A DNA stretch of 64,000 nucleotides, taken from a virus. Where the stretch lies: positions 1-64,000 of the IMG/VR virus record IMGVR_UViG_3300044998_001357; one strand, written 5' to 3'. The notes under the pieces are model-generated. The model was not told the origin of the DNA, ran no database searches, and saw nothing but the letters and a program-made list of their open reading frames with translations. Positions 2,957 to 44,448 of this stretch are shown here, piece after piece. Both the position numbers and the translations under genes were made by a program. Numbering within the stretch: the first letter of the stretch is position 1; every line of letters starts with the position of its first letter.

Positions 2957-4405
2957 ATGTTTCGCTGGCTGGCCAACCTCTGGAGCACTACGCCGCCGCG
3001 ACCGGGTCGTAGCCGGGTCGTCCGCGTCGTGCGCGGCCGCTACGACGCGGCCGTGACCACCGACGACAACCGCCGCCACTGGGCCAACGCCGACGGCCTG
3101 TCGGCCAACCAGGCTAACAGCGTCGAGGTGCGCCGCGTCCTGCGCAATCGCGCCCGCTACGAGGTCGCCAACAACAGCTACGCCAAGGGCATCGTCCTCA
3201 CACTGGCCAACGACGTGGTCGGGACCGGCCCTCGCCTGCAACTCCTCACCGAGGACTCGAAGGCCAACACCCGCATCGAGCGAGAGTTCACGGCCTGGTC
3301 CAAAGCGATAAGCCTGCCCGAGAAGCTGCGCACCATGCGCATGGCTCGGGCCACCGACGGCGAGGCCTTTGCGGTCTTGACCAGCAACCCGCGACTACCG
3401 ACGCCGGTGCAACTCGACCTGCGGCTAATCGAGGCCGACCAGGTGGCCACGCCGAGCTTTTCCGCCTGGGAGAGGGCTGGAGTCGATGGGATCGTCTTCG
3501 ACGCGGCGGGCAACCCGGTTGAGTACCATGTCCTCAAGGACCACCCAGGGGACGGCTACTGGAATGGGCGCGAGTACGATCGAGTGCCCGCCTCGGCGGT
3601 GCTGCACTGGTTTCGTTGCGACCGGCCGGGCCAGGCGCGGGGTATTCCGGACATCACCCCGGCCCTGCCGCTGTTCGCCCAACTGCGGCGCTTCACTCTG
3701 GCCGTGATCGCCGCCGCCGAGACGGCCGCCGACTTCGCCGGTATCCTCTACACCGACGCGCCCGCCAGCGGGGAGGCCGACGCCGCCGAGCCGTTCGAGC
3801 CGATCGAGTTGGAGAAGCGGGCGCTGGTCACCATGCCCGGCGGCTGGAAGATGAGCCAGCTGCAAGCGGAGCAACCGGCTACCACCTATGCCGAGTTCAA
3901 GCACGAGATCCTCAACGAGATCGCCCGCTGTCTCAACATGCCGTTCAACGTCGCGGCGTGCAACAGCAGCGGCTACAACTACGCGTCCGGTCGGCTCGAC
4001 CATCAGACCTACTTCAAGGCGATTCGCGTCGAGCAGGCCCACCTCGAGGCCGTTGTTCTCGACCGCATCCTCGCGGCCTGGTTCGACGAGGCGGCGCTGA
4101 TCCCCGGCTTACTGCCCGTCGGCTTGGGGCCGCTCGCCGGCTGGCCGCACCAGTGGTTCTGGGACGGGCACGAGCACGTCGATCCCGCTAAGGAGGCCGC
4201 CGCCCAGGCGACCCGCCTAGCCAACCTGACCACCACGCTCGCCGACGAGTACGCCCGCCGTGGCCTCGACTGGGAGGCCCAGTTGCGGCAGCGCGCCAAG
4301 GAGATTGCGCTTATGCAGGAGTTGGGCCTGACCCTGGCGCAAGCTCAACCATTCATCGACCATGATGAGGAATTCGACGATGACATCGACACGTCGGACG
4401 ACTGA
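2957..4405 (+). CDS. Phage portal protein, lambda family
   Basis: LRNRARYEVANNSYA, RPGQARGIP, NYASGRL, VDPAKEA motifs. Confidence 0.92.
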   Translation: MFRWLANLWSTTPPRPGRSRVVRVVRGRYDAAVTTDDNRRHWANADGLSANQANSVEVRRVLRNRARYEVANNSYAKGIVLTLANDVVGTGPRLQLLTEDSKANTRIEREFTAWSKAISLPEKLRTMRMARATDGEAFAVLTSNPRLPTPVQLDLRLIEADQVATPSFSAWERAGVDGIVFDAAGNPVEYHVLKDHPGDGYWNGREYDRVPASAVLHWFRCDRPGQARGIPDITPALPLFAQLRRFTLAVIAAAETAADFAGILYTDAPASGEADAAEPFEPIELEKRALVTMPGGWKMSQLQAEQPATTYAEFKHEILNEIARCLNMPFNVAACNSSGYNYASGRLDHQTYFKAIRVEQAHLEAVVLDRILAAWFDEAALIPGLLPVGLGPLAGWPHQWFWDGHEHVDPAKEAAAQATRLANLTTTLADEYARRGLDWEAQLRQRAKEIALMQELGLTLAQAQPFIDHDEEFDDDIDTSDD

Positions 4406-16960: not shown

Positions 16961-17251
16961 ATGGATAAACACATGCAACCAGACAATGTTCAGTTGATTC
17001 GTCCAGCACCAATCAAAATTGATGCTGACAATGCGATAAAAGAACTAAAAGATATTCTATCCAAGCCAATACGTTTTGAGTTGGATGCAGCCAAGACGGT
17101 TGCGCAGGTCGAGCGCCTGGCTGATCGGCTGGAGAGCCAGGCGGTTTCCGCTGCCTGGTGGGCGGGCTGCGGCGCAGGCGGCCTGTCTGTCGGAGGGGTC
17201 GTGTTGATGCTTGCAATGATGGCATCAATACTTGGGAGGGCTAAGCGATGA
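16961..17251 (+). CDS. Small membrane protein (holin-position)
   Basis: C-terminal hydrophobic segment followed by basic tail; coupled to protease gene. Confidence 0.45.
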   Translation: MDKHMQPDNVQLIRPAPIKIDADNAIKELKDILSKPIRFELDAAKTVAQVERLADRLESQAVSAAWWAGCGAGGLSVGGVVLMLAMMASILGRAKR

Positions 17252-18321
17252 GACGAGCTCTTATGTGTCTGTTGGCTGTGACGCTTTTGGTTGTAGGCAC
17301 TGGAAGCGCCACTACGCATATGTTAGGCCCTGCCAAGGCGCAGGCCTGCGAGGCCAAAATTAATGCGCCTGCGCGCATCCTAGAGCACAGGCTGTTTGTG
17401 GCCAGCCCTGAGTGCAAAACAGAAGGCGCGGTTTATCTGTGGGACGTGTCCCCAGAGGATGTAGCCGACACGCTAATCGAGGGGGACCGGCTCATTATGG
17501 CCGCTCCGCCGGGCACGTATAAAATACGCTTAACTGTGCTTACCATTAAAGACGGCAAACTGCAACGACCTCAAGTATGCCGTCATGTGGTGGTCGTCGA
17601 GCGATCGGGCCAGGCTCCTCCGGTGACGCCACCCGGTTCTGGTCCTGGCCCGGGTACACCCAAGCCGCCCGAGGGAGGGGCGAAGCCGAACCCCGCTAAG
17701 GCGTTGGGCCGCATTCAATTTGGCAATGCCGGCTGCACGGCAACGCCGATCTGGCCGCCTCGCGCCGACGGCCGATGGGACATCATCACCGCCGCACACT
17801 GCATGCAGGGCGTTGGGTCGCGGGGAACATTCACGACCCAGGATGGACGACGCATACCTGTGCGAGTGGTGGTCCACGAGCGCGGCTCCGACCTGGCTTG
17901 GCTGGTCACAGAGTCGCCGGTGGAGTCGCTGGATTACGCGGTGTTGGCCAAGCGGATGCCGGAGCCTGGGGCCAAGGTGTGGCACGCAGGTTATGGCGTG
18001 GATCGGCCTGGCAACCGCGAAGAGGGCGAATTAATCAACGCTGAAGCAGGACAATATCAAGCTACGTACATGATCAGCGTGTCGTCAGGCGATTCAGGCG
18101 GAGGTATATTCAGCGATGCCACCGGCGAATGGCTAGGTGCTGTCTGCTGCACACGCGCTAAGGGGGTCCGGGCGACCGTCTGGGCCGGTCATGCTCTCCG
18201 CGCTGCGGCCCTGCGGCCAGGCGCAAATACAGAAGCACAGCTGCTAGATAAATATATAATTCCGCGCGGGGCCGAACACCCTATCCTCATTGAGGATACG
18301 GCGGCGCGTCCGGCGAAATAA
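17248..18321 (+). CDS. Secreted trypsin-like (S1) serine protease
   Basis: Signal peptide, Pro/Gly linker, catalytic motifs TAAHC, SDLAWL, GDSGGG. Confidence 0.85.
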   Translation: MRRALMCLLAVTLLVVGTGSATTHMLGPAKAQACEAKINAPARILEHRLFVASPECKTEGAVYLWDVSPEDVADTLIEGDRLIMAAPPGTYKIRLTVLTIKDGKLQRPQVCRHVVVVERSGQAPPVTPPGSGPGPGTPKPPEGGAKPNPAKALGRIQFGNAGCTATPIWPPRADGRWDIITAAHCMQGVGSRGTFTTQDGRRIPVRVVVHERGSDLAWLVTESPVESLDYAVLAKRMPEPGAKVWHAGYGVDRPGNREEGELINAEAGQYQATYMISVSSGDSGGGIFSDATGEWLGAVCCTRAKGVRATVWAGHALRAAALRPGANTEAQLLDKYIIPRGAEHPILIEDTAARPAK

Positions 18322-18331
18322 CTGCCGGACG

Positions 18332-18366
18332 GAAAAGCAAAAGGGCCGGGAGATTCTCCCGGCCCT
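18332..18366 (-). terminator. Intrinsic terminator between convergent genes
   Basis: Perfect inverted repeat AGGGCCGGGA/TCCCGGCCCT with T-rich tail on the minus strand. Confidence 0.75.
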
Positions 18367-18368
18367 AG

Positions 18369-18629
18369 TCATTCAGTCTTGCGCGGCCGCCCTCGGCGTT
18401 TGCCGGGCGGTTTTTTCGCCGCTACCTCCACCTCCGCCACGGGTAGTGGCGGGGCATCCACCACGTAACGGCAAGTGGGCGGCGCGGCAAGATGCCGCGC
18501 AATCGCATGCTCTAGCTCGGCTCGGTAGGTCCGCCCGTTGGCAACCGCCAGGGCCTCGATCTCCGAATCGAGAGTCTCGTCGATCTCGACGAACCTGGCC
18601 CGACGGCCGGGTTTTGCTGTGTCCGTCAT
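18369..18629 (-). CDS. Ribbon-helix-helix (Arc-like) regulator
   Basis: RFVEIDETLDSEIEALAVANGRTYRAELEHAI; AGGAGG RBS; divergent from early operon. Confidence 0.7.
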   Translation of the reverse strand: MTDTAKPGRRARFVEIDETLDSEIEALAVANGRTYRAELEHAIARHLAAPPTCRYVVDAPPLPVAEVEVAAKKPPGKRRGRPRKTE

Positions 18630-18706
18630 CGTACACCTCCTCGCTCCTATCATACACCATCCCGAGCGAGATATAGACGCGGCCAAGAAAATTTTGGAAA
18701 ATCCTC

Positions 18707-18735
18707 TTGACTCCGGTCTAGATGGAGTATATATT
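18707..18735 (+). promoter_or_regulatory. Sigma70-like early promoter with palindromic operator candidate
   Basis: TTGACT-17 nt-TATATT; ACTCC-N9-GGAGT inverted repeat overlapping the spacer. Confidence 0.7.
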
Positions 18736-18781
18736 GAAGGTGTAAGGCAAACGCAACCACTAAACCAAAGGAGTCCGTGAA

Positions 18782-19156
18782 ATGGCTACGATCGAACTGA
18801 ATGGTGTCCAGTTGACCCTTGAGATCTTGCCGTTCGAGTCGAACGACCAAGGCGGCTGGCACAACGCCATCGTGACCACCCCCGACGGTCAGACGATTCA
18901 TGTCGGCGGGGGGTGGGTGCACTCGGCGGAATCCGCTTCGCACGACAATCGCTGCAGCGGATTGGCGGTGGACACTTGCCCCGAGGTCCGTTGGCCCGGG
19001 GCCACAAAGGAAGGCGACTTCGAGCCGTATGATGCCGCCGACATCGGCGATTTGGACGGCCTAATGCGGGCCGTCGGCCTCTCCTCGCAGGAGAGGCAGC
19101 AGGCCGTATCTGCTATCCAGGACGCCTCGCGTGAGGCGTTCCTCGGGCTGGACTGA
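18782..19156 (+). CDS. Hypothetical early protein (acidic)
   Basis: AAGGAG RBS; first gene after promoter. Confidence 0.7.
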   Translation: MATIELNGVQLTLEILPFESNDQGGWHNAIVTTPDGQTIHVGGGWVHSAESASHDNRCSGLAVDTCPEVRWPGATKEGDFEPYDAADIGDLDGLMRAVGLSSQERQQAVSAIQDASREAFLGLD

Positions 19157-19237
19157 GCAGAGTGGCCCGCTCTCTGTGGGGAGAGCGGGTTAATGCCCCG
19201 ACGCTGTATGGTGCAGCGTCGGCCGTCACAAGGCGGC
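19157..19237 (+). ncRNA. Twister ribozyme, circularly permuted (type-P5-like), copy 1
   Basis: GCA-GA-GUG-[P1 hairpin]-UAA-UGC-C-CC-[P3 hairpin]-GCCG-UCAC-AA-GG-CGGC; P2 UGC/GCA, pseudoknots GUG/CAC and CC/GG; predicted cut U19191^A19192. Confidence 0.85.
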
Positions 19238-19273
19238 ATTCGTGCGGGGACCGCCCCGCAGGAGGAGAGACCA

Positions 19274-19798
19274 ATGGAAAAGATCACCCCCACTGAAGCG
19301 GCAGCAGCGATCGCTGGCCTGCTACCGCAATATGAGGCGGGCCTAGCGGCCCGCCACGCGGCCGAACAGGCTCTGGACCAGCGTGCAGTCGAGGCAGCCA
19401 ACGCGGATCTGTCCCAGATCTGCGCCAAAGTCCGAGAGATGATGCAGATCATCACTCCGGAGGAGTTGAGCGATGGCCGATGCTATACCCTCGTGTTAGC
19501 CGCATCTCGCGGCGCAACGCCGCGAGGCCTCCGCGATATTGCGGAGGCTCTCGTAGTCTCTCGCGAGGACGGTATCACCGTCCCAGCGCACCGGTACGAG
19601 TCTATGTTCCGGGGCCGTGGCTGGGCGCGGCTTGAGAAAGGTGATGGTGATGGTGAGGTCTGGGCCGAACGTGTGGCAGGCGGATACCGCCTGCGGAAGG
19701 AAGGCCGATGGATAATCGGCGGTAGCAATGGTCTCACCCACGAGGGAGAGACCACTTGGGATGTCCGCCGAGTAGCGGGCATGTGGATAGCTTCGTGA
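19274..19798 (+). CDS. Hypothetical protein bracketed by two twisters
   Basis: GGAGGAG RBS before MEKITPTE; open 174 codons. Confidence 0.7.
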   Translation: MEKITPTEAAAAIAGLLPQYEAGLAARHAAEQALDQRAVEAANADLSQICAKVREMMQIITPEELSDGRCYTLVLAASRGATPRGLRDIAEALVVSREDGITVPAHRYESMFRGRGWARLEKGDGDGEVWAERVAGGYRLRKEGRWIIGGSNGLTHEGETTWDVRRVAGMWIAS

Positions 19799-19820
19799 GG
19801 CGTTTCCAACTCTGGACTGA

Positions 19821-19903
19821 GCAGAGTGGCCCGTCCTCCCTATAGAGGGGGGGCGGGTTAATGCCCCAGGCTGCATGGTGTGGCCTGGCCGTCACAAGGC
19901 GGC
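19821..19903 (+). ncRNA. Twister ribozyme, copy 2
   Basis: Core identical to copy 1; P1 and P3 differ in sequence but remain paired (including G-U); predicted cut U19859^A19860. Confidence 0.85.
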
Positions 19904-19985
19904 ATTCGAGCGGGTCGGTCCCGCAGGAGATTCTAGGGTTCGCCAAGGCGACCTCTTGGCTGGCCTTGACAGAAAGGAGCAACGG

Positions 19986-20330
19986 ATGAAATTTCGTATT
20001 GAGGTAGAAACCAATAAGGGTTATAGGGTATGGATAGCCCGCATCACGGGAACCTACATTCGATACGGCCTGAGACGGTCGTTTATCCCGGCTGATGTAT
20101 ACAGCCGGAACCGCAAATACCAAACTGTGAATCAAGTTTGGGAGTTGGGTTCCGGCTTATACGAGCTAATCAGAACGAAAAAGAATAATGAGTTTTTTAT
20201 ACTATATCACTATGACGGCGGGCTGGCCAAGAAGACCATCGATATGGCCCGCGTGAAGGCCATCGCCCGGCTGCTGGACGCGGGCGAAGACTTCGAGTCT
20301 GCCCGGCTGGCGACCAAGTCCGGCGCGTAG
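19986..20330 (+). CDS. Hypothetical protein
   Basis: AAGGAG RBS; WIARITG...YGLRRSF pattern. Confidence 0.7.
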   Translation: MKFRIEVETNKGYRVWIARITGTYIRYGLRRSFIPADVYSRNRKYQTVNQVWELGSGLYELIRTKKNNEFFILYHYDGGLAKKTIDMARVKAIARLLDAGEDFESARLATKSGA

Positions 20331-40780: not shown

Positions 40781-41000
40781 TTTAACCCTTCTTGTTCTTT
40801 GGCTTTTCTGGGTTACTAGTAATGGTCGTGAACATGGTCTTAGGCCTGTTTACGACCTTTAGCTGAGAACGCTCATCATTCGTGCCCACCTATGCCCCGG
40901 CGATGAGTAAAATCGCCATTGGCGCATGTAAGATTGTTTTGGTATTGATTCGGTGATGACTGGTCTTTGTGGATGTTTACTTGGCCTCCTAGGAGAAAAA

Positions 41001-42134
41001 ATGAAGTCGACACATCGCTCGGAAGTCGTACCAGTGGTTCTGCAGAAGCACCCCAACGCGGATAGCCTATCCATTGTTAAGGTATGGGGCTACACCTGCA
41101 TTGTTCGAACGGTCGACTGGCAGGGAAGGTCGCGTGGCGTTTATATTGTTCCCGATAGCTGCGTGGATGTACGCCGACCGGAGTTCTGTTTCCTGGCGGA
41201 TAAGGCCAAAGAAGATGGGACGTACCGTGTTCGGGTCACCCGGCTGCGCGGCGAACTGAGCTATGGTCTGCTCATTCCCGCCCCGGACTGGGCCGAACTG
41301 GGCCAGGACTTGGCTCCGTATCTGGGTGTGACCCGCTACGAGCCACCGGAACACTCACGTGGCTTCATCGCTTCGGGCGAGGAGGAGGAGGGGCCTGACC
41401 TCTGCACCGGTCCGGAAAAGTACGACGTGGAGGCGTTCGAGCGTTACCACCACCTGCTGGAGGTGAATGAGCCGGTGGTGGTTCTTGAAAAGCTTGACGG
41501 CACCAACATGCGGGCGGTTTACTGGGAGGGTCGTTACTGGGTCAAGACCCGTAATCGTTGGGTCAAGCGCGTGCCGACCTACTCACACATCACCCTAGAT
41601 TCCCTTATCGGTCGTGGCGTGGCGGAAGAGCAGGCCCGGGAAATTGTTGAGCGGATTGCCAATCGCTGCCCTAAACTGAACAGCCACTGGGAGGCTCTCG
41701 AAAATAGTCCGGCCACAATGAAGTTTCTCAAAGAGAATCCGGGGATGACCCTCTACGGCGAGGTGTTTGGCGCGACGAACCGAATTCGCTACTGGAAGCA
41801 TGGCAAGAATCGTTTGGCGGTTTTTGACATCTATGACCAGGGCGTTTTCCTGAATGCCGGCAACACCTGGCGTCTGGGCGTAGCCAACGACCTGGAGATG
41901 GTTCCTGCGTTCACCCCTTTCGCAGGAGGGCGTACCTCGTTTGCTTTTCATGGCACCCCCTACAAGTTCGACACCATCAAGCGGCTGGCCACGGGAACCA
42001 CTCTGGTGGAGGGTGCCGGCTGTGCAGTGATTCGTGAGGGGGTCGTGGTTCGTCCACTCCAGGAGCGTTACGACCCCAAGATTGGCCGGGTGATTCTCAA
42101 ATGTGTCAGTCCTGATTTTTTGGTAAAGGATTAA
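41001..42134 (+). CDS. ATP-dependent RNA ligase (DRB0094/Rnl2-like) with N-terminal OB domain
   Basis: KHPNADSL N-terminus; motifs EKLDG, GEVFG, FDI, EGVVV, LKCVS. Confidence 0.88.
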   Translation: MKSTHRSEVVPVVLQKHPNADSLSIVKVWGYTCIVRTVDWQGRSRGVYIVPDSCVDVRRPEFCFLADKAKEDGTYRVRVTRLRGELSYGLLIPAPDWAELGQDLAPYLGVTRYEPPEHSRGFIASGEEEEGPDLCTGPEKYDVEAFERYHHLLEVNEPVVVLEKLDGTNMRAVYWEGRYWVKTRNRWVKRVPTYSHITLDSLIGRGVAEEQAREIVERIANRCPKLNSHWEALENSPATMKFLKENPGMTLYGEVFGATNRIRYWKHGKNRLAVFDIYDQGVFLNAGNTWRLGVANDLEMVPAFTPFAGGRTSFAFHGTPYKFDTIKRLATGTTLVEGAGCAVIREGVVVRPLQERYDPKIGRVILKCVSPDFLVKD

Positions 42135-42523: not shown

Positions 42524-42886
42524 ATGAACGATGCACTAAGCAAAATTATTATGACAACGAATGAGACTTTTGCCGAGATGGGAATCATCGTAGGAGCACC
42601 GCCTCGGCATCCGGACTGGCACAGAGTACGCAAGGCCTGGCTAAAACTTCAACCCGTTTGCCAGGCCTGTGGCGGAACCGATAAGCTTGAGGTTCACCAC
42701 ATTGTGCCGTACTGGAAAGAACCCCGGTTGGAGCTTATCGTTACTAATTTGATTACTCTGTGTGATGCGCCCTATCGGCACTGTCACTTCATTGTCGGTC
42801 ACCTTATGCACTGGGCCAGCTGGAACCCGGATGTTCGCGAGGACGCCCAGCGGCTGCTCGACAAGATACGTTCTCGACCCCGTTGA
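42524..42886 (+). CDS. Small HNH endonuclease
   Basis: CQACG...EVHHI.P...NLITLC...CH...GH. Confidence 0.85.
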   Translation: MNDALSKIIMTTNETFAEMGIIVGAPPRHPDWHRVRKAWLKLQPVCQACGGTDKLEVHHIVPYWKEPRLELIVTNLITLCDAPYRHCHFIVGHLMHWASWNPDVREDAQRLLDKIRSRPR

Positions 42887-43682: not shown

Positions 43683-44448
43683 ATGACCGCGAAAAATCGA
43701 ATCCCTCTTTCCCCCTCGGTTCAAACGCGACAAGACTGGCTTTGAGGACGCAACGGAAATTATTCTGGAAGTCCTCCACGGCGAGGGCGGGCAGGATGCC
43801 AAGCTTTTTGTAGAGCAGCTGGCCGACCTCTACCTCCGCTATGCCGCACGTCATTCGATTCGTGTTTTCGTTCTGGACAAATCGCCGGGTCATTGCGTTT
43901 TTCGGTTGCAGGGCAAGGGGGTGGGCCACCTTTTTGCTCGCGAGGCCGGAAAGCACTGCATTCAACGTATCCCCTCCAACGACCGTTCGGGTCGTCCGCA
44001 AACCTCGTTTGTGAGCGTGGCGGTTCTCCCCTTACCTCCCGAAAACACGGTGACTCCTCTGCCCGAAAACGAACTGCAGATTACCGTCCAGACCGGAAAG
44101 CAAAGGGCCGGTGGCCAAAACGTCAACAAGGTGGCCAGTGCCGTGCGGATGAAACATCTACCCACGGGTTTGTCGGTCTTTATCCATGGTCGAGACCAGG
44201 GCCAGAACAAACAAGAGGCCCGACGCATTCTGACCGCCAAGGTCAATCAGCTACGAAACGCCCAACGACAGGAAGATTACTCCCGACTCAAAAATGGGCA
44301 ACTGGGCGAGCGCGGCCGGGGCGGGAAAATCCGGACCTATAACTTTATCGATGGTCGGGTAACCGACCACCGGAGCGGTCAGACCACCAATAATCTGAAG
44401 GGTCTTATGAAGGGCAACCTCGAGCTTCTTGCAAATCTGTCTGATTAA
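43683..44448 (+). CDS. Class I peptide release factor-like protein lacking domain 1; frame break at CTT-TGA (43740-43745)
   Basis: AAGGAG RBS + ATG 43683; +1 frame encodes IILEVLHGEGGQDAKLF, EAGKH.IQRIP, GGQNVNK..SAVR, KIRTYNF..RVTDHR. Confidence 0.85.

Follow-up and report, generated by a model that had tools for sequence, protein, structure and literature searches.

Type-P5 twister ribozymes as probable intercistronic processing and leader modules in a phage genome

The 64,000-nucleotide (nt) stretch analyzed here, termed the window, comprises bases 1-64000 of the 148,783-bp IMG/VR virus record IMGVR_UViG_3300044998_001357, which is ~99% complete according to CheckV and is classed as linear. 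Two co-oriented copies of a twister self-cleaving ribozyme lie at 19157-19903 among three small genes, A, B and C: twister 1 is placed between genes A and B, and twister 2 between genes B and C (Table 1). These elements are interpreted below as probable modules for intercistronic processing that also supply a leader to the downstream gene. A promoter-like site ahead of gene A, recognized by its resemblance to the consensus, is a possible start of the transcription unit. Pfam and PHROG searches with genes A and B, and with a further gene, X, that accompanies twisters near the end of the record (the tail locus), gave no matches and thus no function. The 15 metagenomic homologues of gene B are all hypothetical, and gene C matched phrog_26647, with a weak match to Phage_Gp111. 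Genes A and B each have a paralogue in the record, A′ at about 146653-147012 and B′ at the record end. In related contigs, homologues of gene B are located at or near the start of an operon that is divergent from helix-turn-helix repressor-like genes, a position which fits an early operon.

Table 1. Features at the twister locus (positions in the window; ORF, open reading frame; aa, amino acids)
Feature	Position	Strand	Basis or remark
Terminator-like hairpins	18342-18407		Consensus matches; upstream of the promoter-like site
Promoter-like site TTGACT-17-TATATT, 10/12 consensus positions	18707-18735	+	Consensus scan; ahead of gene A
Gene A, 124 aa, no family	18782-19156	+	ORF list; TGA 19154-19156 touches twister 1
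Twister 1, type P5 with P3	19156-19241	+	Predicted cut U19191/A19192
Leader hairpin GCGGGG/CCCCGC (19244-19259), then Shine-Dalgarno sequence AGGAGGAG (19260-19267)	19244-19267	+	
Gene B, 174 aa, ORF between both twisters	19274-19798	+	ORF list
27-nt remnant of the gene A 3′ end, by homology, before twister 2	19794-19820	+	
Twister 2, type P5 with P3	19820-19907	+	Predicted cut U19859/A19860
Leader hairpin GCGGG/CCCGC (19910-19924), then orphan AGGAG (19925-19929)	19910-19929	+	Read from sequence
AAAGGAG (19973-19979) and gene C (ATG 19986 to 20330, 114 aa)	19973-20330	+	

The covariance model of Rfam family RF02684 (Twister-P5) matched 19156-19237 at 37.3 bits and 19820-19903 at 37.4 bits, in both cases over its full length (model positions 1-58) and just under the gathering score. 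The E value was 6e-6 when 1.1 kb was searched and 3.5e-4 when both strands of the entire window were included. A default Rfam scan of the window at gathering thresholds returned no matches, and the twisters surface only when E-value thresholds are applied. The minimum free energy (MFE) folds of the two copies consisted of exactly the P2, P1, P3 and P4 stems, with z scores of -5.67 for twister 1 and -5.20 for twister 2 which no shuffled sequence equaled (0/200). The UAA cut site, the P2 strands GCA/UGC, the GAGUG motif and the L4 loop GUCACAAGG are present in both copies, as are the pseudoknots T1 (GUG/CAC) and T2 (CC/GG). The GCAGAG motif of twister 1 begins at 19157, directly behind the stop codon of the upstream ORF. 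Between twister 1 and twister 2, the P1 stem exhibits one double change and three one-sided G-U changes, and the P3 stem two double and two one-sided changes, with pairing kept throughout. The initial annotation, which was made from the sequence without database searches, had described two co-oriented twisters that retain every core element, whose P1 and P3 stems differ in sequence yet stay paired partly through G-U pairs, and the first of which starts on the base after a stop codon. The model matches, folds, core nucleotides and pair counts all agree with that description.

The tertiary contacts of type-P5 twisters comprise T1, which joins L1 to L4, T2, which joins L2 to L4, an extra G-C pair on P4 and a U·A pair (PMC5408937). 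The G-C extension of P4 was invariant in all 30 copies of the alignment that is presented below, and both nucleotides of the Hoogsteen U·A pair are present. Four core positions differ from the Rfam consensus line, but in pairs that compensate: the middle pair of T1 is U-A in the phage copies and g-c in the consensus, and T2 is CC/GG in place of GC/GC. A P5 stem, sought by reading as a pairing of the 5′ flank with the conserved AUUC that follows P4, was not found in convincing form. Twisters are cleaved at a U-A step beside P1 with the conserved A on the 3′ side (PMC5408937), and this family architecture leads to predicted cuts at 19191/19192 and 19859/19860. The same positions had been proposed initially, as had a 668-nt product, and the arithmetic is right: double cleavage would release an RNA of that length if both copies are active. 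Weak matches to the whalefall-1 family at 19055-19096 (minus strand) and 19075-19138 (plus strand) were far under threshold and were taken as chance hairpins. Overall, the assignment of the two elements as ribozymes is supported by the covariance model, the folds, the covariation and the compensated pseudoknots, from which cleavage itself is predicted.

The two copies in the window do not constitute an isolated pair. The model R1, which was built from nine copies, found exactly five in the record, all on the plus strand. The three further copies, detected with the Rfam model and R1, occupy 145559-145644, 147011-147102 and 148242-148332. Twister 1 scored 107 bits with R1, twister 2 scored 90.7 bits and the copy at 145559-145644 scored 104.6 bits; the last of these was missed by a genome search with RF02684 at E≤1. 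The copy at 148242-148328 reached 38.0 bits with RF02684, and is the only one of the five to exceed the gathering score. No other Rfam family scored over its gathering threshold anywhere in the record. Thus, the pair possesses the sequence and structure that were first ascribed to it, but it represents two of five genomic copies and does not stand alone. The sequence UUAAUGC follows P1 in each of the five, and GCAGAG and GUC.CAAG also are present. The AUG within UAAUGC is in frame with gene B (19193) and, at the 147-kb copy (L004:1541), with gene X. The in-frame AUG was judged coincidental because the equivalent triplet in twister 2 is out of frame; it probably reflects chance in GC-rich DNA.

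A common layout extends beyond the ribozyme in all five copies: the twister is followed by CAUUC, a GC hairpin, and AGGAG or a close variant, which is AAGGUG at the 145.6-kb copy. A start codon then follows, except after twister 2, where AGGAG is without a start codon at working distance and gene C begins ~60 nt further on behind its own Shine-Dalgarno (SD) sequence, 45 nt beyond the orphan motif. The leader hairpin is found after the five genomic copies and after close relatives, and its stem changes are compensated, as in GCGGAG/CUCCGC at the 145.6-kb copy and GAGCAU/AUGCUC in the related contig L020. More distant relatives are devoid of the extra hairpin, and their SD sequence is 9-16 nt past P4. 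The upstream boundary is equally regular. In four of the five copies, no more than 22 nt separate the stop codon of the preceding ORF from the twister: three copies abut it, and the stop codon of gene B is 22 nt upstream of the first base of twister 2. The remaining copy, at 145.6 kb, is in an intergenic stretch of 320 nt. Across the 30 aligned copies the stop codon ends between -2 and +1 nt from the first twister base in about 20, and an SD sequence with a start codon is 1-49 nt past the twister in 27. The other three have no SD or start call and a contig end truncates at least two of these. The script's choice of start codon after twister 2 is doubtful, and the ATG at 19986 is preferred.

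The 30-copy alignment was assembled from this genome, four IMG/VR contigs and 14 metagenome contigs. Standard pairs were formed in 97% of cells, and 25 of 32 pairs displayed changes on both sides, a figure that was matched in none of 500 shuffles (0/500). When the pairing partners were slid out of register as a control, pairing fell to 36-42%. The P1, P3 and P4 stems all covary. The pair that closes P3 alternates between C-G, in 17 copies, and U-A, in 10 copies. The T1 and T2 pseudoknots pair in 97-98% of cells, with three double changes in T2 within the set. A pattern scan of genome contigs produced no matches, and hence no clue to a host or prophage.

The initial annotation regarded gene B and its two twisters as a possible self-excising, circularizable cassette. 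Related contigs carry arrays of one to three twisters, between which zero, one, two or three ORFs of differing identity are found. In the tail locus, a GP88-like gene together with A′ fills one interval and gene X fills the next. Gene B lies between twisters in L005, an unrelated 103-aa ORF in L029, two ORFs and then one in L009, and three ORFs and then one in L013; the segment of 152 nt between twisters in L021 is without a credible ORF. Four more distant homologues of gene B, with 54-63% identity (L024, L025, L027 and L028), are not directly flanked by a twister, and three of the four have one that is located one or two genes downstream. The second element of L029 (5888-5972) is a decayed twister that has lost GCAGAGUGG, UAAUGC and the L4 loop but retains P1-like and P3-like hairpins, the leader hairpin and the SD sequence. 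It scored 31.7 bits with R1, was not matched by Rfam, and lies one 103-aa ORF past an intact copy. As ORF content varies and the bracketing of gene B is not maintained, the conserved unit, judged from these arrangements, is the junction module of stop codon, twister, SD sequence and start codon, and is not the bracketed gene. The proposal of a dedicated circularizable cassette finds no support in these data, nor in the lack of RtcB in the phage that is described below. Gene X, at 147141-148241 of the record (L004:1631-2731), encodes 366 aa with an N-terminal LGASDPEM motif and has at least 893 metagenome homologues. A twister immediately precedes it in the tail locus, L005, L020 and L029, and in L029 a MoxR-type AAA ATPase gene follows it.

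The type-P5 twisters of this phage, two of its five copies being those in the window, are considered likely (probability of about 0.7) to be used as modules for intercistronic processing and leader formation. Processing of a polycistron, which the initial annotation had put forward as its simpler alternative, fits best. A polycistronic RNA, probably initiated from 18707-18735, would span genes A, B and C, with twister 1 and twister 2 in the two intervals, and continue beyond them. Each twister would fold and cut on the 5′ side of the conserved A. The upstream message would then terminate in the GC-rich P1 hairpin of 11-13 bp plus a U that bears a 2′,3′-cyclic phosphate, and the downstream message would start with 5′-OH AAUGC followed by a leader of P3, P4 and the GC hairpin ahead of an exposed SD sequence. 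When the predicted products were folded, the 5′ product ended with the terminal P1 hairpin and the 3′ product displayed the P3, P4 and hairpin leader with a largely unpaired SD sequence. A switch after cleavage, in which GGCAUU downstream of P4 pairs with the new 5′ end AAUGCC, was dropped as the MFE folds of the 3′ products skip it. In bacterial mRNA decay, 5′-OH ends and terminal hairpins hinder 5′-end-dependent RNases and 3′ exonucleases, and a fixed leader takes away the upstream context. The modules may therefore uncouple neighboring cistrons in stability and translation, with each gene acquiring a 5′ end that is independent of context. A gene that is bracketed by two twisters would be one that happens to lie between two such junctions, and nothing more. 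One suggested role of bacterial hammerhead and twister ribozymes is the processing of polycistrons (PMC6765202).

Several points weigh against this interpretation. Both copies in the window are 0.2-0.3 bits below the RF02684 gathering score of 37.6 bits, which is an operational cut-off and not a defining property of the family. The P2 stem contains three Watson-Crick pairs whereas the Rfam consensus has four, and in all 30 copies an invariant C at the site of a potential fourth pair faces A, U or C; an altered number of pairs in this stem, which normally has four, might disturb the active site (PMC5408937). Retrieval of most of the related loci relied on a DNA pattern with a fixed core, such that core invariance there is by construction, and the 30 copies were aligned by fitting them to the model. 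The promoter is proposed from a consensus match, and the stabilizing and insulating effects envisaged for the modules derive from general knowledge of 5′-end-dependent decay and from the engineered insulator RiboJ.

The modules also are sites of genomic mosaicism. Gene order is A-twister-B-twister-C in the window, A′-twister-X-twister-B′ in the tail locus and A-twister-B-twister-X in L005, whereas L029 has, in order, a 121-aa ORF with a 3′ end similar to that of gene A, a twister, the 103-aa ORF, the decayed twister and gene X. Contig L005 is collinear with 17134-19887 of the window and, inside its second twister, changes over to gene X as found in the tail locus. Similarity to the L005 module stops just after the orphan AGGAG, the same motif that serves gene X in L005; this site is, on this comparison, a mosaic breakpoint. 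A direct repeat, D1, aligns 19130-19189 with 19794-19853, and a remnant of the gene A tail precedes the twister in L005 in the same arrangement as it precedes twister 2. Therefore, the duplicated unit begins upstream of the ribozyme, and not at the cleavage site: it starts 27 nt before the twister and ends past the SD sequence. Among copies, the sequence type of P1 varies independently of that of P3, as illustrated by the second copy of L005, which combines the P1 type of twister 2 with a P3 identical to that of twister 1. As the mosaic and repeat boundaries lie elsewhere than at the sites of RNA cleavage and RVT_1, the reverse transcriptase domain, was not found in the record, recombination of DNA at repeats is the economical explanation, and the direct-repeat modules of ~120-140 bp would serve additionally as junctions for the swapping of gene cassettes. 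Retrozyme-like mobility was rejected on the same two grounds.

Two further repeats were observed. The record ends inside B′, the last ~200 nt of which (148590-148783) are 99.5% identical to 19490-19689, and the part of B′ upstream of these is about 80-85% identical. The near-identity at the record end indicates that the contig probably broke at a repeat, and gene conversion between B and B′ is possible on the basis of these identities. In addition, the promoter-like region at 18685-18776 resembles two places in L005, at 1544-1612 and 3885-3976, the second of which is directly after gene X. This recurrence suggests that another repeated regulatory cassette exists in addition to the twister module.

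The mosaicism raises the question of whether the primary meaning of the modules is at the level of DNA, as repeated regulatory cassettes through which homologous recombination shuffles, duplicates and deletes genes, with RNA cleavage secondary or incidental. The differences in gene order, the synteny break within a twister in L005, the recombined P1 and P3 types, and the gene A remnant before twister 2 with the orphan SD sequence after it all are in keeping with this explanation, for which the PeSL elements of T4-type phages furnish a precedent (PMC2839356). Nevertheless, it leaves unexplained why a catalytic core, compensated pseudoknots and covarying stems are kept in distant contigs that share no stem sequence, and why the order of stop codon, twister and SD sequence is fixed. 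Recombination is an expected by-product of any dispersed repeat and is compatible with a role in RNA processing, and the loci concerned are few. A primarily DNA-level meaning is thus regarded as unlikely.

A less probable explanation still is that the copies are catalytically dead or very slow, and function simply as structured intergenic spacers that provide a 3′ hairpin and leader hairpins, or as sites for host RNases. The three-pair P2 in all copies and the subthreshold Rfam scores in the window favor this possibility, as does the decayed L029 element, in which the hairpins, leader hairpin and SD sequence have outlasted the catalytic core. However, the nucleotides that are highly conserved in the Rfam consensus are all present or are changed with compensation, and the core has been retained where the stems have wholly diverged, a pattern that is difficult to account for unless catalysis is under selection. 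The window copies are unlike the L029 copy, which illustrates what loss of constraint looks like.

Twister cleavage products carry 5′-OH and 2′,3′-cyclic phosphate ends, which RtcB joins. The ends of the 668-nt gene B RNA might accordingly meet as a nicked hybrid twister that is sealed through reversal of the ribozyme reaction or by an RtcB-type ligase of the host, to yield a circular mRNA resistant to exonucleases. This circle is chemically possible as the cleavage ends are substrates of RtcB, and the excised RNA carries the ribosome binding site (RBS), ORF and stop codon. Moreover, a complete twister fold (-56.8 kcal/mol) results when the 5′ half of twister 2 is fused to the 3′ half of twister 1, and coding RNAs flanked by twisters in the Tornado system are circularized in Escherichia coli by native RtcB (PMC12628768). 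The hybrid fold, however, is not evidence of design, since any two type-P5 copies that share a core would produce it automatically, and a complete twister rebuilt in the circle should cut again. Tornado constructs are reportedly designed such that an intact ribozyme is not left in the circle. RtcB (PF01139) was absent from the 99%-complete record in a search whose controls were positive, a result that concerns the phage, whose host may have one, and no kinase of the AAA_33 type was found. The RNA ligase of the phage is of the ATP-dependent PF09414 type, which needs 3′-OH and 5′-phosphate ends.

The comparative data also disfavor a circle. The content between twisters varies from zero to three ORFs, the more distant gene B homologues are unbracketed and L029 pairs an intact with a decayed copy; neither the set of copies, the inter-twister content nor the mosaicism reveals selection on pairs. 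Circles were sought in analogous hammerhead arrays and none was found (PMC3088659), and a literature search on twister-catalyzed ligation yielded nothing useful. A biologically meaningful circle, whether of the gene B RNA or otherwise, therefore is considered very improbable. The broader version, in which successive type-P5 twisters and a host RtcB-type ligase or twister religation generate circular, exonuclease-resistant mRNAs of early genes, such as the 668-nt RNA, with the cleavage/ligation equilibrium of the hybrid twister timing the life of the message, is at least as remote. If true, the joining of ends from different cassettes would amount to gene shuffling at the RNA level and could underlie the independent assortment of P1 and P3. 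The phage ligase is encoded at 40953-42134, where PF09414 is accompanied by the OB domain of PHA02142. An HNH protein (42524-42886) and a short release-factor-like protein with an RF-1 domain (43906-44448) also are encoded in the window.

Intercistronic processing with leader formation thus remains the favored interpretation, and the locus offers a compact, testable example in which two twisters with predicted cuts lie among three small genes behind a probable promoter. The biological role of self-cleaving ribozymes in bacteria and phages is still largely unproven (PMC6765202). The variant core is just under the Rfam cut-off, which only one of the five copies passes, and default scans consequently under-count arrays of this kind. 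The coincidence of ribozyme modules with mosaic breakpoints in phage genomes is additional evidence that the locus contributes. The arrangement itself is a known one, and not a new kind of element; the locus is a clean example in which the core variant is slightly unusual and the leader resembles that of RiboJ.

At the level of the ribozyme, the closest relative is the type-P5 twister (RF02684, clan CL00120; PMC5408937), with which the phage copies share the order of the P2 3′ strand, a closed P1, UAA, the P2 5′ strand, an optional P3, and P4 with its L4 loop, together with T1, T2 and the conserved A that follows the scissile bond. The phage copies differ in the U-A pair in the middle of T1, the CC/GG of T2, a P2 of three pairs, and flanks from which a P5 stem cannot be drawn. 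At the level of the array, the nearest parallel is the set of prophage hammerheads described by Perreault et al. (2011; PMC3088659), in which co-oriented ribozymes likewise flank single genes or short blocks of varying identity. The role proposed there is the conversion of long transcripts into gene-length mRNAs, and the idea of circular products also was raised. Cleavage of those hammerheads was demonstrated both in vitro and in E. coli, and a search for circular or spliced products detected none (PMC3088659). In contrast, the elements described here belong to the twister class, are in a fixed relation to the stop codon and SD sequence, and are followed in close relatives by a leader hairpin.

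PeSL cassettes of T4-type phages (PMC2839356) similarly are short, repeated regulatory units which reside between small non-essential genes at breakpoints of insertion, deletion and replacement. They are composed of a promoter and terminator rather than a ribozyme, and DNA mini-circles have been shown for PeSL. Tornado constructs and retrozymes have in common with the locus that an insert between two self-cleaving ribozymes acquires ends that RtcB can join (PMC12628768). The phage modules differ in that engineered ligation stems are absent, the cuts are internal such that a circle would keep a whole twister, and the phage is without RtcB and without reverse transcriptase.

The parallel to RiboJ concerns layout. 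RiboJ consists of the sTRSV ribozyme and a 23-nt hairpin before the RBS, and increases expression 2- to 10-fold (PMC6206723). The succession of stop codon, ribozyme, hairpin and RBS in the phage mirrors this engineered insulator: a GC hairpin and then AGGAG follow the ribozyme in all five genomic copies and in close relatives, with an RBS before the ORF that folding predicts to be accessible, and cleavage would in either case place a defined, hairpin-bearing leader in front of the gene. Unlike RiboJ, the phage modules are natural, based on twisters, and intercistronic instead of promoter-proximal, and with their function predicted from this layout, they may be said to work like RiboJ without belonging to its family.

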